Below, one piece after another: positions 1,474-64,000 of a DNA stretch of 64,000 nucleotides. Source of the DNA: Gammaproteobacteria bacterium. GTDB taxonomy: Bacteria > Pseudomonadota > Gammaproteobacteria > JBCCGL01. The stretch lies in assembly GCA_965277715.1 (NCBI GenBank), contig OZ255836.1:4000001-4064000 (forward strand). Reading direction: 5' to 3'. Position numbers and translations under genes: made by a program. A model generated the notes under the pieces. It was not told the origin of the DNA. It was given only the letters and a program-made list of their open reading frames with translations, and searched no databases. How positions within the stretch are numbered: position 1 is the stretch's first letter; every line of letters starts with the position of its first letter.

Positions 1474-3462
1474 TTGATGGCTAATCTATCTCATAATACG
1501 GTTCCGTTAGACTTGACTGATCGCGCATTGGCGATGGGTGCCCGTCCAATCGATACTCTACCCCACAATAAAGATGGTATAGACAAGCAGCTACTGGCGT
1601 TGGATGCGCTCGCAAAACTGAGTAAAGTCCATCGCCGGGATAGCCGCTATGGCCGCACCGATGAAGTATTGCGCACCATTCGACAATGCCTTTCACCTCT
1701 ACTGACGATTGAGTGTTGTGGTTTGTTCACCCTGGAAGGTGATGATGCATTTACCTTGGCGGCACAATGGCCAGTGCACTCCGATGAGCTGCAAAAAGCC
1801 AACGAATTACAAGAGGAAGTGGATGAATTGATCCTGAGAGGTGATTTCACCTGGTCGGTCAATCGCAGCCAGCCAAAAGTCATCGTATCCTCTCTCAGTG
1901 GCCGCACACTGATGTTGAGCCTGCTGACAACGCGCAAGCAAGTACAGGGTTTGTTTGTAGCCGCAGTAAAGAACGCCTTGTCGATGACTGAGCTTATTGG
2001 CAAAACGATTATTGTGGTAATGAATAATTGCGCTTACGCCATAGAAAATGCCGCACTGTATTCGATTGTCAGCGGCCAGCGGGATAACCTTAAGCTGCTG
2101 GTGAAACACCGCACCAGAGAGTTAAAGTTTACGTCCAAACACGATTTGCTGACGGGGCTGCGCAACCGCAGTGAACTCCTGTGCCGACTTGAGGAAAAAA
2201 TTCTCTCCGCCCCTACCAATACCTTTGCCTTTATGCACCTCGATATCGATGGTCTGGCACGGGTTAATGTGGCGTATAGCTATAAAGTCGGTGACCGCTT
2301 GCTGGTCGAGGTCGCTTCCCGCTTGCGCCGTTTTTTCAAACAAGTGTGTGATCGACAAACGGTTGATGTGCTGTGGTCGGATATCACGGTAGCACGGTTG
2401 GGTGCCGATGAGTTCGGTGTGCTGTTTCCCTTGCTTGAATCAATGGATGCCGATCAGCTTGAGCCGTTGACCACCGATTTACTCAATGCGTTAAACCGCC
2501 ATTATCGGGTGGATGATGAGCAGATTCGCATTAGCTTTCGTATCGGTGCCTGCTTGTTTCCACAGCATGGAGACGACCCCAAAGCCCTGATGATGCGCTC
2601 TGAAGTGGCATTGCACCAGGCCAAACGGTCGGGGATGCGCTACCAGTTGTACAATGTAGGCTTACAGGATCTGCGCGGTTCCAAAAGCCTCTCACTCGAA
2701 GGTGAGCTGGCGCAGGCGATTGATAAAGAAGAGTTATTTGTTTGCTATCAACCCAAGGTTGACCTGCTCTCTGGAGACGTTGTCGGTGCTGAGGCTTTGC
2801 TGCGTTGGCAACACCCCAAACGTGGACTGATTTCACCGGATGAATTTATTCCGGTGGCGGAAAACAGTGGCTTGATTCAACCCATTGGCGAATGGGTGTT
2901 TAACCACGTCTGCCAACAACTGCGTAGCTGGCAACAACAGGGGCATGCAATAAAAAAGTACTCGGTTAATTTGTCTCAAATGCAAATGCAGCAAAATAAC
3001 CTGGTCAATGTGTTTGCCGATACGCTGGATTGCCAATCGGTGCCTGCCAACTGGCTTGAGTTTGAGGTCACTGAAACCTCGTTAACCCACGATATAGATG
3101 CCGCAACCCGTGTGTTGGGTGAATTGCACGATTTGGGTTTTGCCGTGTCGATGGACGATTTTGGCACGGGCCATTCATCACTCACGCTGCTAAAAAAATT
3201 CCCACTGGATACGATTAAAATTGACCAGTCATTTGTACGCGATTTAACCAGTGATCCAGACGATGCCGCCATTGTGAATGCGGTCGTTACCATGGCAAAT
3301 AATTTGCGTTTACGGGTGGTGGCAGAAGGTGTCGAAACACGCGATCAACTGCATTTTCTGCGCGCAATGGGGTGCCATGAAGTGCAGGGTTACTACACCG
3401 GGCGGCCAGCGGTTGCCGATGATTTTATTAAACTGTGCAGTGATTGGCGGGGCTTTCGCTAA
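1474..3462 (+). CDS. GAF-like + GGDEF + EAL c-di-GMP signalling protein, probably a phosphodiesterase
   Basis: HDLLTGLRNR, variant GADEF, intact EAL, DDFGTG, IKIDQSF and VAEGVE; ATG at 1477 is an alternative start. Confidence 0.9.
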   Translation: MMANLSHNTVPLDLTDRALAMGARPIDTLPHNKDGIDKQLLALDALAKLSKVHRRDSRYGRTDEVLRTIRQCLSPLLTIECCGLFTLEGDDAFTLAAQWPVHSDELQKANELQEEVDELILRGDFTWSVNRSQPKVIVSSLSGRTLMLSLLTTRKQVQGLFVAAVKNALSMTELIGKTIIVVMNNCAYAIENAALYSIVSGQRDNLKLLVKHRTRELKFTSKHDLLTGLRNRSELLCRLEEKILSAPTNTFAFMHLDIDGLARVNVAYSYKVGDRLLVEVASRLRRFFKQVCDRQTVDVLWSDITVARLGADEFGVLFPLLESMDADQLEPLTTDLLNALNRHYRVDDEQIRISFRIGACLFPQHGDDPKALMMRSEVALHQAKRSGMRYQLYNVGLQDLRGSKSLSLEGELAQAIDKEELFVCYQPKVDLLSGDVVGAEALLRWQHPKRGLISPDEFIPVAENSGLIQPIGEWVFNHVCQQLRSWQQQGHAIKKYSVNLSQMQMQQNNLVNVFADTLDCQSVPANWLEFEVTETSLTHDIDAATRVLGELHDLGFAVSMDDFGTGHSSLTLLKKFPLDTIKIDQSFVRDLTSDPDDAAIVNAVVTMANNLRLRVVAEGVETRDQLHFLRAMGCHEVQGYYTGRPAVADDFIKLCSDWRGFR

Positions 3463-3550
3463 AAGGCGCAGTTGAACCTCCAGGCTTGAATGGTAAGATA
3501 CACACCGTTCAATTCCGCACCCAGCGGAATACAATACGCTGGAATTCTGC

Positions 3551-4366
3551 ATGCTTCAACACCCCCAAATTGACCCTGTTGCCATCAGTATCGGGCCGCT
3601 GAACATACACTGGTATGGCCTTATGTACCTGATGGCATTTGCCGCGTGCTGGTATGCAATGCATTACCGTGCAAAAAAACCAGGTTCTGGATGGACAGCG
3701 GAAATGGTCTCAGATTTACTGTTCTACGTAGCCTTGGGCGTGGTATTGGGTGGGCGCGTGGGTTACGTTGTATTTTACAATTTTCCGGAGTTTGCCGATA
3801 ACCCACTGGTTTTATTTAAAGTGTGGCAGGGAGGAATGTCGTTTCACGGTGGCTTATTGGGTGTGATCGTCAGCATGATTTTGTTTGGGCGCAAGACCGG
3901 CAAAGGGTTTTTTGTCATAGCCGATGCGATTGCCCCTGTGGTGCCGCTGGGCCTGGGGTGTGGTCGCTTTGGCAATTTCATCAATGGCGAGTTGTGGGGG
4001 CGGGTGACGGATGTGCCGTGGGGAATGGTATTTGCCGGTGCCGGTTCAGCACCGAGGCACCCTTCGCAACTCTATCAATTTATGCTTGAGGGTGTGGCGC
4101 TATTCTTGATTTTATGGGTCTTCTCCAGCCGTCCAAAGCCTGTTATGTCAGTCTGTGGTTTGTTTTTAGCCCTGTACGGTATTTTTCGTTTTACCGTCGA
4201 ATTTGTACGCCAACCCGATGAACACCTTGGTTTTATCGCATTTGGCTGGTTAACCATGGGGCAATTATTGACAGTGCCAATGGTACTACTCGGTGCCTTT
4301 CTGGTTTTTATCGCCTATCGTCAGGCAGGTCAGCGAGCCAATAATCAGAGCCGGGCAGGCGTATGA
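3551..4366 (+). CDS. lgt: Prolipoprotein diacylglyceryl transferase
   Basis: [35 protein letters not shown]. Confidence 0.97.
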
Positions 4367-5157
4367 AACAATACCTGGATCTGATGCGCCATGTGCGCGA
4401 CCAGGGAGTGGATAAGCCCGACCGTACCGGCACTGGCATTCGCTCGGTATTTGGCTACCAGATGCGCTTTGATCTGGCGGCGGGCTTTCCGCTGGTTACC
4501 ACTAAAAAACTGCATGTAAAATCGATCATCCACGAGTTGCTATGGTTTCTTCAGGGCAGCACGAATGTGGCTTATTTGCGCGACAACGGCGTTTCCATCT
4601 GGAACGATTGGGCGGATGAACAAGGCGAGCTGGGGCCGGTTTATGGTGCGCAGTGGCGATCCTGGTCCACGCCGGATGGCCAACACATCGACCAGATCAA
4701 ACAGATACTCAAACAATTGACCCATGATCCACATTCCAGGCGTATTATCGTTAGCGCCTGGAATGTGGCTGAAATTGACACGATGGCATTGCCGCCGTGC
4801 CACGCTTTTTTTCAGTTCTATGTGGCCGAGGGGAGGTTATCCTGCCAACTGTATCAACGCAGTGCCGATATTTTTCTGGGTGTACCTTTTAATATTGCCT
4901 CTTACGCACTATTGACGATGATGATTGCCCAGGTTTGTCGCCTGCGTCCTGGTGAGTTTATTCACACCCTGGGGGATGCGCATTTGTATAACAACCATTT
5001 ACAGCAGGTTGAGCAGCAGCTTGAGCGCGCACCTCATCAATTGCCTCAGATGCAACTCAATACACAGATCGACGATTTGTTTGCATTTCATTACGACGAT
5101 TTCACATTGGTCGATTACCAGTCACACCCGCATATTGCCGCCCCGGTGGCGGTGTAG
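4363..5157 (+). CDS. thyA: Thymidylate synthase
   Basis: [35 protein letters not shown]. Confidence 0.98.
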
Positions 5158-5181
5158 CGATCGACCTAAACGGTTTTTAAA

Positions 5182-5691
5182 ATGAAAGTTGCGATGGTAA
5201 TGGCGGTGGATCGCAATCGATTGATTGGCCGACACGGCGGTTTGCCCTGGTGTATTTCTGCTGACCTCAAGTACTTTAAAAAAGTCACCATGAATAAGCC
5301 GATTATTATGGGGCGTAAAACCTGGGATTCGATTGGCCGACCACTGCCTGGTCGAACTAATATTGTGGTGACCCGCAATACAGACTGGCAGGCACAGGGC
5401 TGCCTGGTGGCGTCTGATTTGGATGGCGCATTGGCCATCGCCTCGGCACACCTTGGCACAGCAGGCGAGTGTGCCATTATCGGCGGCGCCATGTTGTGTG
5501 AGCAGGCGATGCCGAAAACCGACCGTTTGTACCTGACCACAATTGACCATGTGTTTACAGGTGATACCTGGCTGAACAGCTACCATGCCGAAGATTGGCA
5601 GTTGATGGAACGTACTGAAATGGCCGTGGGGGAGGGCAGTGATTATGCGTTATCGTTTGATGTGCTGGAGCGTATAGGCCGCAAAACCTAA
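5182..5691 (+). CDS. folA: Dihydrofolate reductase
   Basis: LPW..SADLKYFK, IMGRKTWDSIGRPLPGRTNIV, IIGG; follows thyA. Confidence 0.95.
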   Translation: MKVAMVMAVDRNRLIGRHGGLPWCISADLKYFKKVTMNKPIIMGRKTWDSIGRPLPGRTNIVVTRNTDWQAQGCLVASDLDGALAIASAHLGTAGECAIIGGAMLCEQAMPKTDRLYLTTIDHVFTGDTWLNSYHAEDWQLMERTEMAVGEGSDYALSFDVLERIGRKT

Positions 5692-5908
5692 GATCCTGTC
5701 GGATCTCTCACAACGGAATCCTTGCCATTCACTGGTCGTTGTCGTCTAATCAGTTTGAAATTGGAGAGACGATGGCTTTCCTATAGGGGAGCCTGCACTT
5801 CGTTGGTTCATGCCCGTGCCGGGCGCACAAATCAAATTTTTGCTGCGCGCCAGTTTGCCAGGTATGGGGGTTGTTTGTAATTAAAATACTACATATGAGG
5901 AATAAATT

Positions 5909-6139
5909 ATGTCAGACCAGTGGTTGACAGGCCTAACAACAGATAACGCCCAGCAAGGCTATGAGCTGGCAATAAAACTATCCAGAATGGGGGTGAAATA
6001 CACCCAGCCGTCAGATGAAATCAGAGAAAGGTTACGGCCCGTTTATGGCGAAAATGCTGATAGCCTGATAGCGTCTTCACAGGTGATTGCCATCAATTTT
6101 CAAACGGTAGCAGCAGCAAATAATTATTGGTCGGATTAA
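5909..6139 (+). CDS. Hexameric tyrosine-coordinated heme protein (HTHP)
   Basis: 76 aa; G(Y/F)xLAxKLSR, TQP, LRxVY and FQTxAAANxYW match the remembered Ruegeria/Silicibacter HTHP sequence; GAGGA RBS. Confidence 0.85.
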   Translation: MSDQWLTGLTTDNAQQGYELAIKLSRMGVKYTQPSDEIRERLRPVYGENADSLIASSQVIAINFQTVAAANNYWSD

Positions 6140-6292
6140 ACCCACAGCAAAACCCGCCAGCAGGGGGCAGCAAAGCGCTACTCCTGTGCCAGGTCGTCAA
6201 TCATGCAGATGCCGCTATGCACAATGATTTAACTTTGACTTGATACCACCAAATTTGTCACTATCCACGCTTTTCGTGAACAGGGCAATGAC

Positions 6293-9910: not shown

Positions 9911-11236
9911 ATGAAACTCGACATACTGCCCGCTAACGACAACAACAATGGCTGGCTACACCTGCTTGGTGAGTTACCGCCCCCCACCGTATTACAGACC
10001 GGGCAGCGCGCCGACTACGCCGTAGTTGGCGGCGGCTTTACCGGCCTGGCGGCGGCGCGGCGCCTCGCCGAACTGCGGCCCGATGCCTGCATCGTATTGA
10101 TCGACGCGGGCCGCATCGGCAACAACGCGGCGGGTCGCTGTTCCGGGTTTGCTATCGATCAGGCGCACAATATCCGCGCCAGTAGCTTTGCCGACGAAAT
10201 CGCGCACGAGAAACAACAGATCCAGCTCAACCGCGCCGGGCAGGCGGCACTGCAACAGGCCGTCGACGAACAGGCCATCGATTGCGATTGGCGCGACGAG
10301 GGCAAAATCCACGGCGCCGCTACGCCACGCGGTCGGCAACTGTTGCGGGACTTTGCCGGTAACCTCGATGCGCTGGGCGCAGACTACCAATTTCTCGATG
10401 CCGACGAGATGCAGGCGATTACCGGCCTATCGTTCTACCGCGAAGGTCTGTTCACGCCGGGCACCATGCAGATGCAGCCAGCGGCGTTGGTGCGCGGCCT
10501 GGTGGAGACACTGCCAGATAACGTCAGCGTCTACGAAAACAGCCCGGTACTCGAAGTCCACTACGCTGAGCGCGGCGAACCGCACACCCTGACGACAGCG
10601 ACCGGCAGCATCCGCGCCGACACCTTGATCCTGGCCAACAACAGCTTTGGCACCGCCTTCGGGTTCTATCAGCGGCACGTTATCCCACTGCCCACCTACG
10701 CCAGCATGACACGCGAGCTCAGCGATGCGGAACTCACCGCGTTAGGTGGGCGCGAGCGCTGGGGGATTATCCCCGCCCATCCATTCGGTTCCACCGTTCG
10801 GCGGTTGCCGCAAAAGCGCCTGCTAGTGCGCAATATCTACGCCTATTCACCGGGGCACAACCCCACCGAAGCACAGCGCCTGTGGGCGCGCAACAAACAC
10901 CGCCAGTCATTTCTGAACCGTTTTCCAATGCTGGCGCAGGTTGAATTTGAATATACCTGGGGGGGTACTCTGTGCTTGTCGGACAACGGTCAGCCCATTT
11001 TTGGCGAACTGCGCCCCGCTGTATTCGCCAGCCTGTGCCACAACGGTGTCGGCATCGCACGCGGCACTATTTGCGGTAAACTGATCGCCGAACACGCGTT
11101 GGGGCAAGATTCGGCGCTGCTCGATATCATGCGCGCTGCGGGCCGCCCCAACAAAACGTTACCGGCGTGGATGCTGCGCATCGGCGCCCCCATCAATCTG
11201 GCAAATCGCCGCCGTCAGGCGGGTTTGGAGTTATAA
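9911..11236 (+). CDS. FAD-dependent amine/amino-acid oxidoreductase (DAO / PuuB-like)
   Basis: VVGGGFTG Rossmann motif, AAGRCSG, YENSPV, EYTWGG. Confidence 0.85.
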   Translation: MKLDILPANDNNNGWLHLLGELPPPTVLQTGQRADYAVVGGGFTGLAAARRLAELRPDACIVLIDAGRIGNNAAGRCSGFAIDQAHNIRASSFADEIAHEKQQIQLNRAGQAALQQAVDEQAIDCDWRDEGKIHGAATPRGRQLLRDFAGNLDALGADYQFLDADEMQAITGLSFYREGLFTPGTMQMQPAALVRGLVETLPDNVSVYENSPVLEVHYAERGEPHTLTTATGSIRADTLILANNSFGTAFGFYQRHVIPLPTYASMTRELSDAELTALGGRERWGIIPAHPFGSTVRRLPQKRLLVRNIYAYSPGHNPTEAQRLWARNKHRQSFLNRFPMLAQVEFEYTWGGTLCLSDNGQPIFGELRPAVFASLCHNGVGIARGTICGKLIAEHALGQDSALLDIMRAAGRPNKTLPAWMLRIGAPINLANRRRQAGLEL

Positions 11237-12790: not shown

Positions 12791-12815
12791 AGAGTGTTGA
12801 AAGGTAACAATAAGG

Positions 12816-12945
12816 AATAGGACAGGCATTATATAGAGAAGGAAAAAGAATGGGACAGGCACTATATAGAAATATGCAAGCAGTACCCAGAATAGGCAAA
12901 CCTAAATTTTTTACCTATTTTGAGGGTATTCGGTGTAATGATCCA
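12816..12945. repeat. Two GGACAGGCA motifs plus ~90 bp shared with 62428-62548
   Basis: AATAGGACAGGCATTATATAGA and GGGACAGGCACTATATAGAAATATGCAAG...TATTCGGTGTAATGATCCA recur near 62.43-62.55 kb. Confidence 0.8.
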
Positions 12946-13038
12946 ATGAACGCGATAAGACGCCAGCCCAGCCGTTGGGTCTTGAATAATTTTAATCGAT
13001 ACTCTCTGTAGTCGATTTATCCGGAAATAAAACGTATA

Positions 13039-13434
13039 TCAACCATCAGGCTTTACCCAGGATAAACCGTCAACATAGGAAAAGTGGTGATCATAAGAGT
13101 ACAGGTCAGCGCCACTTTCCATGGTATGGGCCGCGATCCAGATATCGTTAGTCGGTATAGGTTTGCCTTTTTTTCTTAGGGCAGATGCTATGCGACCAAA
13201 TCGATCAGCTGTAGTATAGCCAGTAGATAATAGTTCCACGAAAGGATTGTTAAGAAACTGTGCCAGCACGGTACGATTTTTATCAAACCGATTGCCATTT
13301 CGAAAACCAAACAGCAGTTCGCCTACTACAGCGGTAGACATAAAAATCTTTTCTGCTTGTTTCACTTGTGCTGCTAACGTCGGGTTGCCGCGCATAATCT
13401 CGGAGTACACATTGGTGTCTAGAAGAATTTTCAT
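13039..13434 (-). CDS. vapC: VapC family PIN-domain toxin
   Basis: LLDTNV, VVGEL, PTNDIWIAA, YDHHF; ATG overlaps the antitoxin stop. Confidence 0.9.
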   Translation of the reverse strand: MKILLDTNVYSEIMRGNPTLAAQVKQAEKIFMSTAVVGELLFGFRNGNRFDKNRTVLAQFLNNPFVELLSTGYTTADRFGRIASALRKKGKPIPTNDIWIAAHTMESGADLYSYDHHFSYVDGLSWVKPDG

Positions 13435-13694
13435 CGCCACAGTTCATCGTCAACGGTATCCAAGTATTTAATATCACTATTGAATTGATCTGCTTCTTCA
13501 TCAGTCCATAGCCCTAAGAAGGGGGTCAATGAGTCACCTATAACGGGCTTCACGAAGACTTTAGGTTTAAGGCCGGTAGCCTGATGTAATAGCTTTAAGA
13601 CAGTTTTATTTAGTGAGGTATTCTCTGTTTCGGCGATATGCTGCAAACGCTGCTCAAGCTCCAGATCAAAACCTCTTAGTGTAAGTTGTTTCAT
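13431..13694 (-). CDS. Ribbon-helix-helix antitoxin (VapB-like)
   Basis: MKQLTLRGFD..L..IAE.ENTSLNK RHH-like N-terminus, acidic tail ending DDELWR; coupled to vapC. Confidence 0.8.
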   Translation of the reverse strand: MKQLTLRGFDLELEQRLQHIAETENTSLNKTVLKLLHQATGLKPKVFVKPVIGDSLTPFLGLWTDEEADQFNSDIKYLDTVDDELWR

Positions 13695-13711
13695 ATTAAT
13701 GATGCATCTAT

Positions 13712-13728
13712 TGACTCTATTTGAGTCA
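13712..13728. promoter_or_regulatory. Putative TA autoregulatory operator
   Basis: Inverted repeat TGACTC-N5-GAGTCA 17 bp upstream of the antitoxin start. Confidence 0.45.
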
Positions 13729-13737
13729 GTATATGAT

Positions 13738-14130
13738 TCATTCAAAAAACTGCAAGTAAAAGAATAAGACAGGCATAAAAGAGGAGCTGAGGGTTTCCCC
13801 CGCTTGCATTTTTTGAACCAACAGGGAGCCTTTGTGCAGGCTTAACCAGCGGTTGATAACTTCCTGGCCAGTTAGTGTATCGATTTGTTTTGGGTTGAGT
13901 TTAACGGTGAGGTGGTAATGATTGCTCATGATGGCGTAGGCGCACAGGTCAACGGCAAAGAGCGATGAGAGCAGTCGGATGCGGTCGACAATCCACTGAC
14001 GACGGTGTTCATAGTCGCGTTGAGTCAGTAAATCCAGCCCGCAGAGAAAGGTGCGCCGTACACAGCGCGATACGATGTGGTAGTAGGGGGTGTCTGATAG
14101 TGAGATTTGGTCTTTGCGGGGGCGGGTCAT
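13738..14130 (-). pseudogene. Truncated HUH Y1 transposase (RAYT / REP-associated tyrosine transposase family)
   Basis: YYHIVSRCVRR and AIMSNHYH (HUH); similarity ends near 13786 at an AGACAGGCA motif, so the catalytic-Tyr region is missing; TTGACA-N18-TAGGAT promoter upstream. Confidence 0.85.
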
Positions 14131-14436
14131 GGTCAGTTCCTTTAACGCTGGTTGGACGCCATCCTAAAAGAGAGTAAGGTTATCTGTCAATTATTTCATG
14201 CCTGTCCCAGGAGTTTCCGTCTCTATGCACAAGTTTATTGTGCGGGATGCTGGTGGTTTAGGGGGATGAGGTGTCAGGAGTAAACGCTAATTAAGCCATC
14301 CTTCGCTCAATGCAGGTACACCAGGTGGCACATCCTTGCCGTTCACCAAGTCAAATAATTGTCACCATGCATTTTTATCAATGTGTCTCTTCTGTAAGCA
14401 GTTGATTTGTTTGTTTTATCGATAAATATCGGGAAT

Positions 14437-54063: not shown

Positions 54064-57000
54064 ATGACCTCATTACTTACCCGTATCACCTGCGTATCTA
54101 CCGTAGTATGCGCCCTAATAGTACAGACGCTGCCTGCAACGGCGGTTGAAGTTGGCGCTACCGCAGGTGAATTCAATGTATCAAATGGTAATGCCAGCTA
54201 TACCCTTCCAATTAAAGTTGCCCCTGGCCGTGGGGGTATGCAGCCAGACGTTGCGCTTTCTTATAACAGTGCGGCAGGCAACGGTATTATGGGGGTGGGA
54301 TGGAACCTTAGCGCAGTATCGGCGATCAGCCGCTGCCCGGCCAATCTGGCGCAGGACGGTTTTATCAGCGGCATAACCTTTGGCGATAAAAGCCGTTATT
54401 GTCTGGATGGTGAACGTTTGATTCCCGTCAGTGGGGCAAACGGTGCTGTTGGCACTGAGTATCGTACGGAAATTGATGGTTATTCGCGCATTCGTTCGGT
54501 GGGGGGTAGTGCTAACAACCCGGCTTATTTTGTGGTGGATACCAAGGCCGGTCATACCATGACATTTGGTTTGGGCAATAATGCTACTGTGGCATTTGCC
54601 TATGGACGGTTGAATTGGTTATTAAGTGAGGTTAATGATAGTACGGGCAATAACCCAATCACGTACAAATACCGCATCCAGGACAATAAACAGTACCTGG
54701 ACAGTATGGAATACAGTGGCGGGAAAGTTAATTTTGTCTACGAGCAAAGAGCAGATGAAAATAAATACTATATAGCAGGTTCTGAAGTCCATACCCGGTA
54801 CCGTTTACGGTCAATTTCTAGCTATCACAATGATGTTATCTTAAGAAACTATCACCTAACGTACCAAAGTAATCTGGAAAACACTTTACTGAGTAGCGTA
54901 CAAGAGTGTACTTCACAAGACAGCCATTGTTTCAATCATATAAGGTTTGGTTGGCAGGGTGAACCTGCTGCTTACAATGCTGTTATTTCCAATACACCGA
55001 CGGCATCAGGTGGGTATGGGTCAAGTGGGTGGCAGTTTTCTGGGTTTCACGATACCAATGGTGATGGATTGCCAGATGCTATCTGGACATACGCTAGTTC
55101 ACTAAATGTTGGTACTCGGGTAGCAGTCAGTCTCGCCGAAGGGTCAGGTCGATACGGTGCTATTATTGTCAATACACCGACGGCATCAGGTGGGTATGGG
55201 TCAAGTGGGTGGCAGTTTTCTGGGTTTCATGACACCAATGGTGATGGATTGCCAGATGCTATCTGGACATACGCTAGTTCACTAAATGTTGGTACTCGGG
55301 TAGCAGTCAGTCTCGCCGAAGGGTCAGGTCGATACGGTGCTATTATTGTCAATACACCGACGGCATCAGGTGGGTATGGGTCAAGTGGGTGGCAGTTTTC
55401 TGGGTTTCATGACACCAATGGTGATGGATTGCCAGATGCTATCTGGACATACGCTAGTTCACTAAATGTTGGTACTCGGGTAGCAGTCAGTCTCGCCGAA
55501 GGGTCAGGTCGATACGGTGCTATTATTGTCAATACACCGACAGCATCAGGTGGGTATGGGTCAAGTGGGTGGCAGTTTTCCGGGTTTCACGATACCAATG
55601 GTGATGGATTGCCAGATGCTATCTGGACATACGCTAGTTCACTAAATGTTGGTACTCGGGTAGCAGTCAGTCTCGCCGAAGGGTCAGGTCGATACGGTGC
55701 TATTATTGTCAATACACCGACGGCATCAGGTGGGTATGGGTCAAGTGGGTGGCAGTTTTCCGGGTTTCACGATACCAATAGTGATGGATTGCCAGATGCT
55801 ATCTGGACATACGCTAGTTCACTAAATGTTGGTACTCGGGTAGCAGTCAGTCTCGCCGAAGGGTCAGGTCGATACGGTGCTATTATTGTCAATACACCGA
55901 CGGCATCAGGTGGGTATGGGTCAAGTGGGTGGCAGTTTTCCGGGTTTCACGATACCAATGGTGATGGATTGCCAGATGCTATTTGGACATACGCTAGTTC
56001 ACTAAATGTTGGTACTCGGGTAGCAGTCAGTCTCGCCGAAGGGTCAGGTCGATACGGTGCTATTATTGTCAATACACCGACGGCATCAGGTGGGTATGGG
56101 TCAAGTGGGTGGCAGTTTTCCGGGTTTCACGATACCAATGGTGATGGATTGCCAGATGCTATCTGGACATACGCTAGTTCACTAAATGTTGGTACTCGGG
56201 TAGCAGTCAGTCTCGCCGAAGGGTTAGGTCGATACGGTGCTATTATTGTCAATACACCGACGGCATCAGGTGGGTATGGGTCAAGTGGGTGGCAGTTTTC
56301 CGGGTTTCACGATACCAATGGTGATGGATTGCCAGATGCTATCTGGACATACGCTAGTTCACTAAATGTTGGTACTCGGTTAGCAATTAGCCTTTCTAAT
56401 GACACAAAACCAAGACTGTCATCAATAACAGACTCTTTGGGCACGCATACGGATATTAGTTACGCCTCTTTAACCGACAAAACGGTCTACACCAAAGGCA
56501 CTGGCGCCGCTTATCCGGTAATTGACCTACAGTACCCCCAATACGTGGTTAGCAGTGTTACCGCCGATGATGGCATCGGTGGCAGTATTTCTACAAATTA
56601 CCACTACGAAGGATTAAAAGCCCATGTAAAAGGCCGGGGTTCCTACGGTTTTGCCAAAATTACCGAAACGTACCCTGACACAGGTAAAACACAGGAAACC
56701 TGGTTCGACCAGAGTGGCTTCCCCTTTACCGGCCATGTGCTCCGCCACACTGAATCGTACAACGGGCAACTCCTGAATGAATCTACCACTGAATATAGCC
56801 AAGATAGTTACTATGCTGGGGTAGAGTCCGTCCACGCGCACCGCACCGTGCAGCGCAGTTATGAACTCGACGGTTCATTAATTAGCACCGTTACTTCACT
56901 GAGTGAAAACATAGATGCCTATGGCAATGTGGGAACTGTCACTGTTATCACTGAGGGTGGTGGTGAAACATTCACCCAAACCACCGTTAGCCAATACGAC

Positions 57001-60000
57001 AACAATACAGATAACTGGCACCTTGGCCGCCTAATGGAAGCGCGTACTACCCACACCACCCCCCAGGGCGATGCCACGCCCAAGCTCAGCCGCTTTACCT
57101 ACGACGCCCATACCGGTTTGCTCGATTCGGAAAGTATTATCAGCACCCAAACCGGTGAAACCTTCCAAACAACGGTTTACCAATACGATAGTTTTGGTCA
57201 GAAAATTGCTGTTACGCTCAGAGTGCCTAACCATGCTGATCGCACCAGCACCACCGAACGGGATGTGCTGGGTCGCCCTACCAGAAGCTGCAACCCTCTT
57301 GGCTTGTGTGAAACCTTTGAATACAACGAACAGGGACTATTAGCCACGCAAACAGGCCCCAATGGCATCACCACCCGTTGGTCATACGATGGCTTTCAGC
57401 GCAAACGCCTGGAAACGCGGGCCGACGGCAACCAGACCCGTATCGATTATTACTTCGCCAATAGCAACCAATGCGGTGAACGAGCAACGTTTGCACACTA
57501 CTGTAGTGTCACCGAGAGTAGCGGCAGCCCGGCGGTGACCGTACAGTTCGACAACCTGGGCCGCGAAGTGCGCAAAATTACCACTGCACTCAACGGTTTA
57601 AAGGTTTACCACGAAACCGAGTACAACCATTTGGGCGAGGTATACCGTGTTAGCCGCCCTTACTTTTTGGGTGACAATATCTATTGGGCCAGTACCCAAT
57701 ACGACGCTATTGGGCGTGTGGTTGAAATCACCGAACCCGGCCCGCATGGCAGCACGAATACAATCAACAACCGCTACAACGGGTTGACCACGACGACCTA
57801 CAACGGCCCCAAGCAATTGGCGAAAACAACCCGCACCAATGCATTGGGACAAACAGTGCGTGTTGAGGAGGAGGAAGGCAGTAGCGTTGAGTATCGCTAC
57901 ACAGTTGACGGTCAATTGCTGACCACCACGGTAGCAGGCGATGCCGCCACGACCATTACCCTCGCATACGACGAGCGTGGCCGCAAAATCAGCATGGACG
58001 ACCCCGATATGGGGTATTGGACTTATGCATACGATGCCTATGGTCAATTGATTCAGCAAACCGACGCCAAAGGCCAGGTTGTCACGATGGATTACGACCA
58101 ACTGGGGCGCCTGGTGCGCCGCCAGGAAACCGAGGGCATCACCACATGGCAATACGGCGATACCAGTGCACCGTTGGGTAGCATTGGCAAACTCCTCGTC
58201 GAAAGTAACGGTGCTGTCAGTAAAACCTACGAATACGACCACTTTGGGCGTACCGTCGCCACCACCCATACTATTGAAGGCACGGCCTACACCACGCGTG
58301 TTCACTACGATGCGCTGGGGCGCGTAATTAAAACTGACTACCCCGGTGGGCAGGATTTCTACACCGAAAATCTCTACAGCGAACTGGGTTTTCTTCACAG
58401 TGTGCGTGGTAGTCGTCTCCGGGCAGAAACCGGTGATCTCAGCCAATTAGCCCCGTTAATTCTGGCCGCGACAGACCTGGCTGAAAGCTACGAAACCCGT
58501 GCGCACACCTTGCGGCGCATTGGGCAGCGGTATCGCGCCAAACTCGACGACTACCGCGCATTACTTGCCATACAAACCCGTGCAGAGGCGAAATATCAGG
58601 CTGACCTTAAAGAAGCTGAGAAAGAAGCTGCCAGTCAACCCTTGGTGAGCGTACAAGTACCGATTAGTGTTGGAGATATCACCATTTTCGTACCTGGCTG
58701 GCGCAGTCAATTGGTTCTGCCAACCAGAGACCCTGTGCCTGTACCGCATTTAAGCGATGACTTGCAAGCCGATCTGAATAGTCAGAAAAGTTTGCTAACA
58801 GAAAGTATAAATAATGCCAAGATAGAAAACCCCCATGTAATTACCCTGGCACCAGTTAATGTCAATGGTATAAGTATTTTCATACCGGTTGAGAATGGCC
58901 AAGGAGTAACACCTACCCAGAACCTTAGTTCTGACGAACAAACAAACCTAACGGCGAGTATTGGGCAAAACCAAACCCTCTCACCGGCGTTTTTAGGCCA
59001 CCTCAACAATACCGTTATTGAGCTTGAGAATGTCATTGCGTTACTCGATCAGCATATCGGCAGTTACACCCAATTGATCGAACAAATCACCGTATTAGCC
59101 GAGCAAACGCTGGCAGCGGCAGATCAAAGCTTCCATTACACACGCAGCCTTGAAAACGGTGCTGAAAGCTATCAAGCACAAACGGCTGATACCCAACATA
59201 TCACCTACTGGCAGGCGCTTGATGCCGATGCGTCCGGTCGCATTACTGCAGAATCGTATGGTAACGGCATCGTTAACGACTACAGCTACAATACCGCCAC
59301 TGGTCAGTTGCAAGTTACCCATAGCGGCCTGCTTGGCAGCACCGCGATACGGCATATCGAATACCAATACGACGCCTACAATAATGTCACATTGCGCGAT
59401 GACCTGGTTAACGACATCCGCGAAACCTTCGAGTACGACCGCTTAGACCGGCTGACCGCCACGCACTTGGTCAGTGAGCGCTTTATCGGTGGTGGTCTCG
59501 ATATTGCGCAAACCCAGAATTATGACGTTTACGGCAATATCACCTACAAATCTGACGTGGGTCACTACCAATACACCAGTGGTCGGCCACATGCTGTTAG
59601 CAGCGCGGGTAATCATCAATACCACTACGATGCCAACGGCAATATGCTCGAAGGCGATGGGCGCCGCTTCACCTGGAACAGTTTTAACAAACCGATCCAT
59701 ATCAGTAAAAACGGCAAATCGGCCCGTTTTAGTTATGGCCTTGACCGGGCGCGCTATAAAAAGATCAATCACACAGGTGATACCACCTGGTACGTAGGGG
59801 GATTGTACGAGAAACAGGTCACTGACAACGGTCAACACACCCGGCATCAATACTACATCTACGCTGCAGGCAATCGGGTCGCCAGCCACAGTGTTTCCAG
59901 CAAGGAAGGTGTAAAAACCCACTATCTGCACAAAGACGCGCTTGGCAGTATCGACACGATGACGGATGCTGACGGTCAAGTGGTTGATCGGCGCAGTTAC

Positions 60001-61320
60001 GATGCCTGGGGTAAACAACGCCATTTTGACTGGCAAGGTGCGGGGTCGCTGTACAGCATGCGTTTACTGTTTACCACCCGAGCGTATACCGACCACGAAT
60101 CGATTGAGGAAGTGGGCCTGATTCATATGAATGGGCGGGTATACGATGCAAGCCTGGCGCGGTTTGTTAGCGCTGATCCGCATATACAGGCGGCGGGCAT
60201 GAGCCAGAGCTATAACCGTTATAGCTATGTGCTGAATAACCCCATGAAGTATACGGACCCTAGCGGGTACTTTTTTAAGAAGCTTTTTAAGTCGATTAAA
60301 AAAGCGGTTAAAAAAGTGGTAAAAGCTATTAAACCATTTATAGGGGTGATCATTGCGGCTGTGGTGACTTTTTATTGTCCACCCTGCTTAGCGTTAGTGG
60401 GGGGAAACGCAGTTGCACTGGGCGCACTGGCCGGGGCGGCAGCAGGGGCAGCCAGTGCGGCTGTTAATGGTGGTAATATACTTAAAGGCGCCATTACTGG
60501 TGGTATATCGGGTGCTATATTTGCGGGTATAGGTGTGTCAGGTTGGGAAGATACAGCGAAGGTATTGGCTCATGGTGTAGCGGGAGGGTTTATGTCTGTG
60601 GTGCAAGGAGGGAAATTTGGGCAGGGATTTTTGAGTGCTGGGTTTGCTAAATTTGCAACGACCAACCTGACTAATGGCGGTGTTTTTAATATGGCTGATC
60701 GAAGTACTGGGAATATTGTGGGCAGAACGGCGGTTGCGGCAGTGGTGGGGGGTACGGCATCTAAGCTTGGTGGGGGTAAGTTTGCAAATGGAGCAGTCAC
60801 GGCTGCTTTCGCTTATACCTTTGCTAATGCTGCAAGAAGATTTGGAGAAGGTGGTTCCCCGTCCTCTGGTACAGCTTCTGGTTCACAACAGGCTAACCCA
60901 AACCGTGTATGGGAAAATCCAACAGGTGGACAAGTACGCGGTTGTGACTCTCAAGGCTGTGGTGGATACGGAGAAGGTCGTAGCTATGGCCCACATCAAG
61001 GCGCAGATTATGTAGCAACGCCTGGACAAGATGTGGTTGCAGTCACTGATGGCGTTATAGATAAGATTGGTTATCCCTATACCAATGATCTGTCTTATCG
61101 ATATGCAAGAATAACAACTCTCGATGGTTATGTAGTACGTCAGCTTTATGTTGCGCCAGCATCCGGCATCAGCGTTGGTGCAAGTGTTTCTGCTGGTCAG
61201 ACTATTGGAACGTATCAAGGCTTAGGAACTCGGTATCCGGGTATTACTGAGCACGTTCACGTGGATATTCGACACAATGGCCAACAGGTAAATCCAACGA
61301 CTTTGATTCCTTCGCCGTGA
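54064..61320 (+). CDS. Secreted Rhs/YD toxin: SpvB/TcB-like N-terminus, FG-GAP-like repeats, YD shell, Rhs core, M23 (LECT2-like) C-terminus
   Basis: Signal peptide; GNASYTLPI..PG..GMQP..LSYNS..GNG..GVGW; many YD repeats; HMNGRVYD..LARFVSADP..NRYSYVLNNPMKYTDPSG; HQGAD and HVH zinc motifs. Confidence 0.92.
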   Translation: MTSLLTRITCVSTVVCALIVQTLPATAVEVGATAGEFNVSNGNASYTLPIKVAPGRGGMQPDVALSYNSAAGNGIMGVGWNLSAVSAISRCPANLAQDGFISGITFGDKSRYCLDGERLIPVSGANGAVGTEYRTEIDGYSRIRSVGGSANNPAYFVVDTKAGHTMTFGLGNNATVAFAYGRLNWLLSEVNDSTGNNPITYKYRIQDNKQYLDSMEYSGGKVNFVYEQRADENKYYIAGSEVHTRYRLRSISSYHNDVILRNYHLTYQSNLENTLLSSVQECTSQDSHCFNHIRFGWQGEPAAYNAVISNTPTASGGYGSSGWQFSGFHDTNGDGLPDAIWTYASSLNVGTRVAVSLAEGSGRYGAIIVNTPTASGGYGSSGWQFSGFHDTNGDGLPDAIWTYASSLNVGTRVAVSLAEGSGRYGAIIVNTPTASGGYGSSGWQFSGFHDTNGDGLPDAIWTYASSLNVGTRVAVSLAEGSGRYGAIIVNTPTASGGYGSSGWQFSGFHDTNGDGLPDAIWTYASSLNVGTRVAVSLAEGSGRYGAIIVNTPTASGGYGSSGWQFSGFHDTNSDGLPDAIWTYASSLNVGTRVAVSLAEGSGRYGAIIVNTPTASGGYGSSGWQFSGFHDTNGDGLPDAIWTYASSLNVGTRVAVSLAEGSGRYGAIIVNTPTASGGYGSSGWQFSGFHDTNGDGLPDAIWTYASSLNVGTRVAVSLAEGLGRYGAIIVNTPTASGGYGSSGWQFSGFHDTNGDGLPDAIWTYASSLNVGTRLAISLSNDTKPRLSSITDSLGTHTDISYASLTDKTVYTKGTGAAYPVIDLQYPQYVVSSVTADDGIGGSISTNYHYEGLKAHVKGRGSYGFAKITETYPDTGKTQETWFDQSGFPFTGHVLRHTESYNGQLLNESTTEYSQDSYYAGVESVHAHRTVQRSYELDGSLISTVTSLSENIDAYGNVGTVTVITEGGGETFTQTTVSQYDNNTDNWHLGRLMEARTTHTTPQGDATPKLSRFTYDAHTGLLDSESIISTQTGETFQTTVYQYDSFGQKIAVTLRVPNHADRTSTTERDVLGRPTRSCNPLGLCETFEYNEQGLLATQTGPNGITTRWSYDGFQRKRLETRADGNQTRIDYYFANSNQCGERATFAHYCSVTESSGSPAVTVQFDNLGREVRKITTALNGLKVYHETEYNHLGEVYRVSRPYFLGDNIYWASTQYDAIGRVVEITEPGPHGSTNTINNRYNGLTTTTYNGPKQLAKTTRTNALGQTVRVEEEEGSSVEYRYTVDGQLLTTTVAGDAATTITLAYDERGRKISMDDPDMGYWTYAYDAYGQLIQQTDAKGQVVTMDYDQLGRLVRRQETEGITTWQYGDTSAPLGSIGKLLVESNGAVSKTYEYDHFGRTVATTHTIEGTAYTTRVHYDALGRVIKTDYPGGQDFYTENLYSELGFLHSVRGSRLRAETGDLSQLAPLILAATDLAESYETRAHTLRRIGQRYRAKLDDYRALLAIQTRAEAKYQADLKEAEKEAASQPLVSVQVPISVGDITIFVPGWRSQLVLPTRDPVPVPHLSDDLQADLNSQKSLLTESINNAKIENPHVITLAPVNVNGISIFIPVENGQGVTPTQNLSSDEQTNLTASIGQNQTLSPAFLGHLNNTVIELENVIALLDQHIGSYTQLIEQITVLAEQTLAAADQSFHYTRSLENGAESYQAQTADTQHITYWQALDADASGRITAESYGNGIVNDYSYNTATGQLQVTHSGLLGSTAIRHIEYQYDAYNNVTLRDDLVNDIRETFEYDRLDRLTATHLVSERFIGGGLDIAQTQNYDVYGNITYKSDVGHYQYTSGRPHAVSSAGNHQYHYDANGNMLEGDGRRFTWNSFNKPIHISKNGKSARFSYGLDRARYKKINHTGDTTWYVGGLYEKQVTDNGQHTRHQYYIYAAGNRVASHSVSSKEGVKTHYLHKDALGSIDTMTDADGQVVDRRSYDAWGKQRHFDWQGAGSLYSMRLLFTTRAYTDHESIEEVGLIHMNGRVYDASLARFVSADPHIQAAGMSQSYNRYSYVLNNPMKYTDPSGYFFKKLFKSIKKAVKKVVKAIKPFIGVIIAAVVTFYCPPCLALVGGNAVALGALAGAAAGAASAAVNGGNILKGAITGGISGAIFAGIGVSGWEDTAKVLAHGVAGGFMSVVQGGKFGQGFLSAGFAKFATTNLTNGGVFNMADRSTGNIVGRTAVAAVVGGTASKLGGGKFANGAVTAAFAYTFANAARRFGEGGSPSSGTASGSQQANPNRVWENPTGGQVRGCDSQGCGGYGEGRSYGPHQGADYVATPGQDVVAVTDGVIDKIGYPYTNDLSYRYARITTLDGYVVRQLYVAPASGISVGASVSAGQTIGTYQGLGTRYPGITEHVHVDIRHNGQQVNPTTLIPSP
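54973..56390 (+). repeat. In-frame tandem array, 180-bp unit, about 7.9 copies
   Basis: AATACACCGAC starts at 54991, 55171, 55351, 55531, 55711, 55891, 56071 and 56251; only a few substitutions between units. Confidence 0.97.
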
Positions 61321-61330
61321 GTATCTAAAA

Positions 61331-61891
61331 ATGAATTTTTTGATAAAGATGATTATTGGTATTGGCTTCATTATTTTAGTTTCGGGTTGCTCCAAAACTG
61401 AAGCTGCAATTGACTGTGATGTTCCAGAAGTTATCGAAGGGCATCACGACTATAATAAGTTTGTATGCATTGGAGTCGAACAGGTACAGGAGCAAAAATA
61501 CGAAAAAGCTATTAAGTCATTTGAGGCTGCCCTTGCTTTACACTTGTTCGAGACTCCTAACTTTGAATTATTCCCTCAATTAGCTTGGGCCTACTTTAAA
61601 GCAGGTGATCTTAAAAAGGCTGAGGATAACTTAGAGAAGGCTGAGTTATCACTTTCTGTATTTACTGGAATACTAGAGTGTGGAGAAAGTGAAGGTGGGT
61701 TTTATCTACACGATCAAAATGGTGTTCGCCGCACTGGAAAAATTAACGATGAAGTCACTGCCATAATGTGCGGGGCTGCTTACGATTATATTTATGAACG
61801 TCAATCTCTTGAACGTGTGCTACTAGAAGCAGGAATTGTAAAACGTTATTTTGATGTGAAACAGCGAATCGAAGAAATAGCCAGTAAGTGA
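61331..61891 (+). CDS. Lipoprotein with TPR-like helices; candidate Rhs immunity protein
   Basis: Lipobox LVSGC; YEKAIKSFEAAL and LAWAYFKAGDLKKA; AT-rich; starts 10 bp after the rhs stop. Confidence 0.75.
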   Translation: MNFLIKMIIGIGFIILVSGCSKTEAAIDCDVPEVIEGHHDYNKFVCIGVEQVQEQKYEKAIKSFEAALALHLFETPNFELFPQLAWAYFKAGDLKKAEDNLEKAELSLSVFTGILECGESEGGFYLHDQNGVRRTGKINDEVTAIMCGAAYDYIYERQSLERVLLEAGIVKRYFDVKQRIEEIASK

Positions 61892-61898
61892 TCTATGC

Positions 61899-62012
61899 TT
61901 ATTCAATCTGCTCGGTCGTCAACACCAAACAGCCATCCATCACCCTGATCTTAACGGGCGTATTCATATCAAATCCCGCGTCTCTCAGCCAGTGACCTTT
62001 AATATTGATCCA
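61899..62012 (-). pseudogene. symE: SymE family toxin fragment
   Basis: WINIKGHWLRDAGFDMNTPVKIRVMDGCLVLT; no start codon; 5' end abuts a GGACAGGCA motif. Confidence 0.75.
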
Positions 62013-62128
62013 GAACGAAAAATAGGACAGGCACTATATAGAAATATAGTAAGCGCCCAATGGCACTAAGAAGAAAAGCAGAAAAGGGGTCAGGCTAGTT
62101 ATTTAGTATAAACAAAGTATTTTTTGTT

Positions 62129-62155
62129 AAAGCCTCGTATACCGGAGGCTTTTTT
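62129..62155 (+). terminator. Rho-independent terminator
   Basis: AAAGCCTC-N8-GAGGCTTT followed by T run. Confidence 0.6.
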
Positions 62156-62287
62156 ATTGGCTTATGTAGCGTGCCACTTTCTGATCGTATAAATCCCCAA
62201 ATTATCTATCATAGTATTTTTCGAAAAAGGGGTCAGGCTAGTTATTTACTATTTAAAAGATGAAAGTAGAAATAGGACAGGCACTAT

Positions 62288-62384
62288 AGGTCACTGACAA
62301 CGGCCAACATACCCGGCATCAACACTACATCTATGCTGCAGGCAATCGGGTCGCCAGCCACAGCGTTTCCAGCAAGGAGGGTGT
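62288..62384 (+). pseudogene. 97-bp fragment of a paralogous rhs core
   Basis: Aligns without gaps to 59816-59912 with 6 mismatches, 5 of them synonymous. Confidence 0.9.
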
Positions 62385-62922
62385 TAACGAAAAAGGGGTC
62401 AGGCTAGTTATTTACTATTTAAAAGGAAAAATAGGACAGGCACTATATAGAAATATGCAAGGACATCCCGAGAAATTGGAAATAGCGCCCAGGATAGTCA
62501 AACCTGATTTTTTTACTTACTTAGGGGGTTATTCGGTGTAATGATCCAGTTATTGAGCCTTGTTTTAATGAAAAATATTTTTTCAGGCAAATGTAGCGTG
62601 CCACTTTCTGATCGTATAAATCCCCAAATTATCTATCATAGTATTTTTCAGTTTTTCGGCGTTTTTGCCACATTCCGATCATAATAAAAAATACTTTTAC
62701 CGCATTAAAATCTGACGTTTTACCCATCCATATTATACCCGTACGATAACCTCGGCTGACCACGATACTCTCGTAGGTTGCCCTTTATGATGTCATGGGT
62801 TAACTTGTAACAGGGAGCACATAGCCCCCTGTTACGATAGATGTCGCAAACAACGTTTCTCTAAGAGTTGATGCTATTTTCACTGTCCGAAAAGGATAAG
62901 GTGGGTATCCTGGTTCTCTCCC

Positions 62923-63729
62923 TTACGCCACTTGCTGTTTGATTAATTCTTCATGAGAGCGCCAATGGGGTTGTACCAACACATTGTTGACATAACTGAT
63001 TGTCACGATTTTTTTGGTTTCTCTACAAGCTTCGATAAGACTGCCATAACACAGATTGCGGCAGAGCCGTAAGTTTCCCTGTGCTGAACGTACGATCAGC
63101 TCGATAGCGGCGCTATCAAAGGTATTAATGCCCATCCTAACCGCTTCCAACTCTTTGATGATATAACGTTCCAGGTCATCGTCATTGAGCGGGGATATAT
63201 TTTCAGAATAAGTAATACGACTCTTGATATCCTGGTTTACATTCATAGACAGGTAATACAATAAATCCCGCTGTCCAAACAGTATCAGGTTATGTTTTTT
63301 CGGAAAACGTTCAAACAATAACCTTAGCTTTCGCAACACTAGCATGTCCAATAAATGCGCTTCATCAATCAGGATATAAAGCGTTTTTCGATCCCGGATA
63401 TGATTAAATGCGCTGATGATTAATTCCTTTTCCAAGTCTTTAACAGCGACCTCAATTTTAAACGACTCCGCCAGTTGTTTGAGAATATTGAGGTAAGTAT
63501 GCAAAGTGCGTGAGCAGGATACAACCGTGATGTTGCGTTCTTTTTGCAGATTTTCAATATGCTCAAACAGTACGCTTTTACCGACACCAGGTTTGCCGAT
63601 AACGACAGAGAAACCCCCTTGCTGGGAGTGAATCTTGATGATATCAAGGATCTTCTTCTGTTGGGGCAATAGTGTCAAGTCACGCCGATTAAAGGGTTCT
63701 TTGGTGAGTCCGAAGATGGATTTAATCAT
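62923..63729 (-). CDS. ExeA-like AAA ATPase (transposition helper)
   Basis: FGLTKEPF, Walker A GKPGVGKS, Walker B ILIDEAH, GNLR. Confidence 0.85.
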   Translation of the reverse strand: MIKSIFGLTKEPFNRRDLTLLPQQKKILDIIKIHSQQGGFSVVIGKPGVGKSVLFEHIENLQKERNITVVSCSRTLHTYLNILKQLAESFKIEVAVKDLEKELIISAFNHIRDRKTLYILIDEAHLLDMLVLRKLRLLFERFPKKHNLILFGQRDLLYYLSMNVNQDIKSRITYSENISPLNDDDLERYIIKELEAVRMGINTFDSAAIELIVRSAQGNLRLCRNLCYGSLIEACRETKKIVTISYVNNVLVQPHWRSHEELIKQQVA

Positions 63730-64000
63730 GGGTTAGCGCCTTTTTTCTGAGGTTAGCATTATAGTGGAGATTCAGTACTGTGGCGTCCCCCATACGTGTG
63801 TCAGCAAAATAGACCACAAAACGATCTCGCTTAGTCCGGTCATAACGCACCTGGATGGTTTTTTCCCGCAAATCCACCGGGCATTCGTATTTTTGTGAGT
63901 TGATAGAAAAGACATTGGTTTTACTGACTTTGCGATTTTCTTGGATAAAGAAAACCTCTTCGGTGTACTCATCGTCAGTGAGGAAATGGATACGGCTATG
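63722..64000 (-). CDS. C-terminus of a DDE transposase/integrase (Mu transposase C-terminal-like), partial
   Basis: Open frame from the window edge: ..RKVSKTNVFSINSQKYECPVDLREKTIQVRYDR..; stop overlaps the ATPase start. Confidence 0.7.
   Translation of the reverse strand, partial: HSRIHFLTDDEYTEEVFFIQENRKVSKTNVFSINSQKYECPVDLREKTIQVRYDRTKRDRFVVYFADTRMGDATVLNLHYNANLRKKALTHD

Follow-up and report, generated by a model that had tools for sequence, protein, structure and literature searches.

Y1 genes with terminal inverted repeats in place of hairpins have been described as TIRYTs or TIRtrons (Di Nocera et al. 2013, PMC3733652). According to that source, many TIRYT repeats share the core GGGGWSAS, and the repeat families occur "in dimers or clusters", also away from the gene. 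Subclass 2.3 of the Y1 proteins is characterized in Table 1 of Quentin et al. 2018 (PMC6006769) by the motifs NHYH and YVDLNP, a median length of 325 aa, and no REP hairpins. The same source places subclass 2.3 inside subclass 2.1 and equates subclass 2.1 with the TIRYTs, and it assigns no REP-like repeats to subclass 2.3. A literature search on TIRYT, TIRtron, and TnpAY1 found no report of a functional test of such an enzyme.

The window, that is, the whole stretch of DNA analysed here, was 64,000 nucleotides long. Within this 64-kb window, related repeats were present at two loci about 49 kb apart, a cluster near 62 kb and a locus near 12.8 kb, the latter flanked by an SDR gene and a GGDEF gene. 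The repeat units are probably TIRYT-type repeats of subclass 2.3, and the 62-kb cluster a pile-up of such repeats in an Rhs tail undergoing decay. The cluster most likely represents a known kind of element, made of TIRtron-type repeats, and not a new cassette system.

Two short motifs marked the repeats. Motif A, GGACAGGCA, was present in six copies in the window (12820+, 12853+, 14199-, 62025+, 62275+, and 62434+), against 0.54 expected, and none of 100 shuffles reached six copies. Motif B, GGGGTCAGG, was present in three copies (62086, 62229, and 62395), against 0.52 expected, and 2 of 100 shuffles reached three. The three copies of each motif at 62 kb, noted in the sequence-only reading, were confirmed. 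The cores of the two motifs differ by A/T, and these 9-mers sat 7–12 nt inside longer repeats of 31 bp (A) and 38 bp (B). When A was aligned with B, 16 nt were shared as GAAAAAnrGGwCAGGC (p=0.014 against shuffles).

All units of the 62-kb cluster (62014-62548) had the same orientation; one was complete and three were partial (A1, B1, and B2-A2). Unit A1 (62014..62047, plus strand) was partial, without a preceding B and without a tail, and was 100% identical to A3 over 31 bp (62017-62047). Unit B1 (62079..62116, plus strand) was diverged, with 24 bp identical to B2 and B3 and 82% identity over 38 nt. B2 (62222-62259) and A2 (62264-62288) formed the first 67 bp of a unit truncated at its right end (62222..62288, plus strand), and B2 was 100% identical to B3 over 38 bp. 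The only complete unit at this locus (62388..62548, plus strand) contained B3 (62388-62425), A3 (62426-62456), and a 92-bp tail ending in ...TAATGATCCA. The order of B directly followed by A recurred twice (B2-A2 and B3-A3, with a 7-nt indel between both cases), and B-A was therefore treated as one unit. A second complete unit was found at the 12.8-kb locus (12811..12945, plus strand), where two tandem A-type stretches (12812-12837 and 12845-12875) were followed by the same 92-bp tail. The 62-kb unit was aligned with positions 12838-12945 of this locus, and the local alignment score was 95 against a shuffle mean of 16.8. A complete unit of about 160 bp therefore consisted of two related tandem stretches of about 35 bp each (B-A or A-A) and the 92-bp tail. 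The unit end, ...GATCCA, was identical at both loci, and the DNA beyond it differed. The stretch after A1 showed no significant homology to the unit tail (similarity tests p=0.14-0.41).

The unit regions folded no better than shuffles (z 0.65, 1.19, 0.00, -0.94, and 0.01), in agreement with the proposal that the motifs are non-palindromic. The single significant fold (z -2.56) came from a terminator-like hairpin beside A1, which was followed by a T run (62129..62158, plus strand) and belonged to no present gene.

The cluster lay downstream of an intact Rhs/Tc-BC-like toxin gene (54064..61320, plus strand) of 2418 aa, identified from its Pfam matches and its translation. The Pfam domains of this gene were SpvB, FG-GAP, TcdB middle, RHS repeats, and a C-terminal M23 peptidase. 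Inside the gene, a 180-bp tandem unit was repeated 7.8 times at 54978-56385, with copies 98% identical, and encoded near-perfect 60-aa FG-GAP-like repeats. Directly after the toxin gene, a TPR protein of 186 aa (61331..61891, plus strand) was recognized by Pfam TPR and NCBIfam; from its position it is a candidate immunity protein. The following 700 bp or so were AT-rich, with a GC content of 0.37-0.42 vs 0.51 in the whole window.

Three broken pieces were found in this tail. The first was a symE remnant (61899..62012, minus strand), which retained the C-terminal 37 codons and the stop codon and was broken at about 62012/62013. Its positions 61902-62012 (minus strand) matched Pfam SymE_toxin (PF08845) at E=4.1e-14, and it matched NCBIfam NF010128 at E=4.9e-11; since the PF08845 match covers only model positions 22-54 of 54, the N-terminal part of symE is missing. 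Unit A1 started 2-5 nt past the edge of this remnant. An antisense symE between a toxin-immunity pair and orphan modules has been described in a Proteus CDI cluster (PMC11278526), and a similar placement near orphan hcp genes in Pantoea (PMC3942780).

The second piece was a solo 59-bp copy of a transposon end (62164..62222, plus strand), 100% identical to 62591-62649. It contained one 17-mer transposase-site repeat and was cut exactly where unit B2 begins. The neighbouring Tn7/Tn5053-like transposon (62591..64000, minus strand), which runs off the window, was identified from Pfam matches and 17-mer repeats. Its end carried a TGT terminus at 62592 and two 17-mer repeats, and its genes encoded an AAA_22 ATPase (62923-63729) and the C-terminus of a Mu-type transposase (63722-64000). 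Comparison of this transposon with plasmids gave one distant match, in Undibacterium, which was uninformative. The 13 nt before each transposon end (62151-62163 and 62578-62590) both consisted of a T run and then GGC, and the similarity of the DNA upstream of the two ends was not significant when aligned (p=0.14).

The third piece was a 97-bp rhs core fragment (62288..62384, plus strand), which derives from the 2418-aa toxin gene (94% identity to 59816-59912). It corresponded to about residues 1918-1949 of the toxin and stopped just short of the YLHKDALGS motif. This fragment started at the last base of A2 and ended 3 nt short of B3.

Broken sequence adjoined 5 of the 10 motif copies in the window, namely at the symE remnant, the transposon end, both ends of the rhs piece, and a Y1 gene at the 12.8-kb locus. 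The left edges of B2 and B3 fell on the same nucleotide of the unit, with the transposon end preceding B2 and rhs DNA preceding B3. The right edges of the A units varied from 8 to about 14 nt past the core. The sequence-only reading had the three fragments starting or stopping at the motifs. All three do adjoin repeats, but the edges are those of the longer units and not of the 9-mer cores. When the junctions were inspected, no target duplication was seen, and the interrupted fragment never resumed beyond a unit; for this reason the junctions demonstrate neither simple insertion nor capture.

The 12.8-kb locus contained a remnant of a TnpA-Y1 gene of subclass 2.3 (13780..14130, minus strand), corresponding to residues 1-117 of about 325. 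The open reading frame of 130 codons extended over 13738-14130 (minus strand), and relatives matched residues 1-117 only. These residues matched the N-termini of proteins of 314-364 aa (4613 library proteins at E<=0.001). The NHYH motif was kept in the remnant itself, and the YVDLNP motif and the length of 314-364 aa were found in the homologues only. Everything from residue 118 on, including the region of the tyrosine motif, was missing. No full-length Y1 gene was found within the 64-kb window, where the sole Y1 copy was this one without the catalytic tyrosine region.

Repeats surrounded the remnant on both sides. An inward-facing A-like unit (14192..14209, minus strand) was located 76 nt upstream of the Y1 start codon, and another A-like unit, AAGACAGGCA (13759..13784, plus strand), lay exactly at the break of the gene. 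Inverted arms of 16-18 nt, 83-88% complementary, were formed by 14192-14209 and 12820-12868, and 14192-14209 could also be paired with 13768-13780. That the motif brackets the Y1 remnant (13780-14130), as first noticed from the sequence, was upheld, the copies being inverted. The complete unit at 12811-12945 lay 200-300 nt past the predicted Y1 stop codon, which is the expected place of the downstream repeats. A vapBC-like toxin-antitoxin pair (13039..13745, minus strand), recognized by Pfam PIN and NCBIfam VapC, with the PIN toxin at 13039-13440, stood where the lost 3' two-thirds of the Y1 gene would have been and was flanked by directly oriented A copies. The outer inverted repeats, 12811-14209, spanned about 1.4 kb, the size of the intact gene plus its repeats in other genera.

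Homologous loci were collected by tblastn with the 117 residues, which gave 13 plasmid or chromid records at 43-55% identity from Pseudoalteromonas (7 records), Photobacterium, Aeromonas, Vibrio, Catenovulum, Saccharobesus, and Shewanella. The locus counts cover 10 of these 13 records (H9, H13, and H15 being left out). The homologues indicate a marine gammaproteobacterium as the source of the window, in which thyA had only 68.6% identity to its E. coli counterpart. Within 800 bp of the 10 genes, the pattern GACA[GC]NC pointed inward 41 times and outward 5 times, with 7.8 expected each (binomial p=2e-8), a count that is partly circular because the pattern was defined after the loci had been seen. 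Positions outside the pattern were also kept in the inward copies, 32 of 41 having A at +7 and 32 of 41 having A at +13. Furthermore, in 6 of the 10 loci the start codon was preceded by a copy at a distance of 69-80 nt, as in the window (76 nt). From the conservation of these unfixed positions and of the distance to the start codon, we argue that the inward bias is real. The weak loci were those of Aeromonas, Saccharobesus, and Shewanella, with 2/0, 2/1, and 1/1 inward/outward copies, respectively. The earlier proposal that the motifs belong with an HUH Y1 (RAYT-like) transposase was supported by the 41 inward and 5 outward copies at the 10 loci.

The exact 6-mer of the window, GGACAG, was found 14 times inward and once outward, and all of the inward copies were in Vibrio tritonius and Photobacterium. 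At the V. tritonius locus, GGACAGGCA itself was present four times upstream on the strand of the gene and three times downstream on the opposite strand; in the first 100 kb of this 220-kb plasmid, 7 of the 9 copies surrounded the Y1 gene. In the arms of this locus, several direct copies were interspersed with unrelated DNA across as much as 700 bp. At the Photobacterium locus, GGACAG[AT]C was present once upstream and five times downstream, all inward. Local variants of the core were GACACCCA or GACAGCCA in Pseudoalteromonas and GACAGGCA in Catenovulum. None of the 10 homologous loci contained the GTCAGGC variant (motif B) or the 92-bp tail.

Additional genes and cores were observed at some of these loci. 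In Pseudoalteromonas piscicida, a 392-aa open reading frame without a Pfam match was located between direct copies of the local unit (locus 4175-6148). In V. tritonius, a 165-aa GGDEF-only gene was located between the Y1 gene and its downstream repeats (locus 3448-3945). In two Pseudoalteromonas loci (positions 2998 and 2498), a reverse core adjoined the start codon on its upstream side, with a forward copy about 75 nt ahead of it. The reverse and forward cores could pair in single-stranded DNA or in an mRNA leader.

When the window was compared with the published descriptions, the features of a TIRtron were recognized in the Y1 HUH gene, represented by the NHYH remnant that aligns to residues 1-117 and in this copy lacks the tyrosine region, in the inverted flanking repeats that stand in place of REP hairpins, and in the repeat core. 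The core GGGGWSAS was matched by motif B (GGGGTCAG) at 8 of 8 positions, and by motif A at 7 of 8 (TGGGACAG) or 6 of 8 (TAGGACAG). The assignment to subclass 2.3 was based on NHYH in the remnant, and on YVDLNP and protein length as seen in the homologues only. The idea of an undescribed system was not sustained, as TIRYTs and TIRtrons were named in 2013 (PMC3733652) and the protein fits subclass 2.3 as outlined in PMC6006769.

The identity of the repeats, their tie to the subclass 2.3 gene family, and the positions of the junctions were established here directly. Motifs A and B are probably variant cores, belonging to the units that accompany a Y1 HUH transposase of the TIRYT type (subclass 2.3). 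The symE, transposon-end, and rhs pieces may be what is left of earlier residents of the locus: a symE in antisense orientation, a previous copy of the transposon next to it, and an rhs module of the orphan type. These would have been broken when units inserted, duplicated, or recombined. By analogy with RAYT/REPIN and TIR systems, a full-length Y1 enzyme whose gene lies elsewhere in the genome may have moved the units in trans. The pairs A1/A3 and B2/B3 and the transposon-end pair, each 100% identical, suggest recent duplication or recombination in the cluster.

An alternative, which we consider unlikely, is that the units never moved. The cluster would descend from one arm of a TIRtron, since decayed, in which the neighbouring transposon had displaced the gene, and reshuffling would have occurred only by slippage, unequal crossing-over, and illegitimate recombination. 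This explanation is favored by the intact homologous arms, which already hold direct copies over up to 700 bp (V. tritonius), and by the direction of the units, which point to 62549 onward, the place where a minus-strand Y1 gene would be expected and where the transposon is now found. The identical pairs A1/A3 and B2/B3 also fit local duplication. However, the common end base of ...GATCCA at both loci, despite different following DNA, suggests a discrete unit, and B2 and B3 share their left edge beside unrelated DNA. In addition, transposon-end and rhs fragments are found inside the arm, and foreign DNA therefore entered between the units.

Active capture, the mechanism of the sequence-only reading, was regarded as improbable. 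A Y1 enzyme would cut and rejoin single-stranded DNA at direct A and B sites, the DNA between them being a movable block, and a mosaic of foreign pieces would gradually be built at toxin and toxin-antitoxin loci. IS200/IS605 Y1 enzymes act on both ends on one strand, which was counted in favor of capture. The broken sequence at 5 of the 10 motif copies, the common start nucleotide of B2 and B3 beside unrelated DNA, and the vapBC pair between the direct A copies at 12853 and 13766 are also consistent with it, as are the 392-aa frame of P. piscicida between direct unit copies and the GGDEF gene of V. tritonius before the downstream repeats. On the other side, the pieces are 31-97 bp long and non-functional, the A units end at variable distances on the right (8 to about 14 nt beyond the core) and so offer no fixed cut site, there is no hairpin by which a Y1 enzyme could be guided, and the local enzyme is dead. 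Furthermore, no A unit comes after B1, contrary to the proposed cassette pattern, and a second copy of any "cassette" was not found.

It is quite improbable that subclass 2.3 enzymes recognize hairpin-free sites of the GACASNCA type and excise and reinsert the DNA between same-strand sites. If they did, the sites would act as a cassette-moving system working on single strands, by which debris and small genes are seeded at toxin loci, and its candidate passengers would be vapBC, the GGDEF gene of V. tritonius, the 392-aa frame of P. piscicida, and the rhs piece. The integron-like or toxin-shuffling role put forward in the sequence-only reading was not borne out: the pieces are non-functional debris of 31-97 bp with neither an integrase nor an attC-like fold, the Y1 copy of the window is without its catalytic part, and there is no sequence continuity across any unit.

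An assembly artefact, in which short repeats led to mis-joined reads, is hardly credible: several perfectly identical repeats of 31-59 bp could invite such errors, but they are far shorter than the reads, the window belongs to a 4.29-Mb contig, and both the diverged unit copies and the homologous locus about 49 kb away speak against it.

Searches for the units outside these loci were also performed. The 18-mer GGACAGGCACTATATAGA gave eight single hits in 185,579 species genomes, which were in unrelated taxa, at about chance level, and with unrelated flanks. The A copy at 12.8 kb was identical over 24 nt to a contig of a Saccharibacteria MAG (9997-10020). This identity is probably due to chance, and the flanks and the other core copies of that contig were unrelated. 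Blastn of 61890-62700 against plasmids found nothing. When Rfam was run over the whole window at the gathering score, only a tRNA was detected, and both loci at E<=5 gave nothing credible.

Other identities of the unit were considered. At 62290-62532, an open frame of 81 codons ran from the rhs piece across B3 and A3 into the tail; the 12.8-kb copy was covered by a 53-aa open reading frame. A coding function was rejected: the 53-aa frame had no Pfam match and no relative but itself among proteins of 29-93 aa, and the 50-aa unit peptide had no relatives among proteins of 89-2000 aa. Folding of the attC or REP type was rejected, the unit regions folding no better than shuffles. A Tn3-type 38-bp inverted repeat starting from GGGG was rejected on the grounds that the 7 nt before GGGG are also common to B2 and B3. 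No supporting feature was found for lambda-type arm sites, dif-like sites, iterons, or promoters.

With the pile-up of TIRtron-type repeats as the preferred explanation, a puzzling punctuated mosaic receives an identity: end repeats belonging to an HUH transposase family not yet characterised have accumulated there. In at least seven genera, inward arrays of a shared hairpin-free core accompany subclass 2.3 genes, and PMC6006769 assigns no repeats to this subclass. This is a side result of possible use for the study of single-strand transposases, and the precise unit edges beside broken genes are candidate substrates for the biochemistry of TIRYT-type enzymes. The view of Rhs toxin diversification is unchanged.

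Five described systems were compared with the locus. Integron cassette arrays resemble it in that unrelated DNA is divided by direct repeats, two of which enclose a toxin-antitoxin pair. An integron was rejected, as no integrase domain was found in the 56 open reading frames scanned with Pfam, the units are unfolded, and the pieces of 31-97 bp are not genes. Orphan toxin arrays of Rhs and CDI systems likewise have an rhs core piece downstream of a toxin-immunity pair, with an antisense symE between (PMC11278526), whereas only 97 bp of core are present here, with no alternative toxin tip and no immunity gene following. The piece was accordingly not taken as an Rhs orphan module, the core fragment being followed by unit B3 and by no coding sequence with relatives.

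RAYT/REPIN systems share with this locus a domesticated-looking Y1 enzyme that is flanked by its own short repeats, which have spread to intergenic sites. REPs, however, are GC-rich palindromes with a GTAG tag, and the units here do not fold. A classical RAYT/REPIN system was rejected on the absence of hairpins and on the NF047646 scores of four full-length homologues, which were 36.8-45.4 bits against a cut-off of 80. An element of the IS200/IS605 type, with a TnpA of about 150 aa and subterminal hairpins at both ends, was rejected as well, the homologues being about 325 aa long, the Pfam Y1_Tnp scores lying below the cut-off (17.4-18.9 vs 23), and hairpins being absent.

Subclass 2.3 is matched by the NHYH remnant, by the YVDLNP-containing homologues of about 325 aa, which are multi-copy in marine Gammaproteobacteria, and by the lack of REP-type hairpins. 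The inward GACA[GC]NC arrays at 10 loci differ from the published description, since the available part of PMC6006769 mentions none. Compared with TIRtrons, the arms here hold several direct copies where a TIRtron arm is a single TIR, the local gene is a 117-residue stump, and the 26 published TIRYT examples do not include subclass 2.3 (PMC6006769). What the locus has in common with TIRtrons is a Y1 HUH gene with inverted, non-hairpin repeats and a matching repeat core; within the window, such repeats were also seen in the cluster about 49 kb from the gene.
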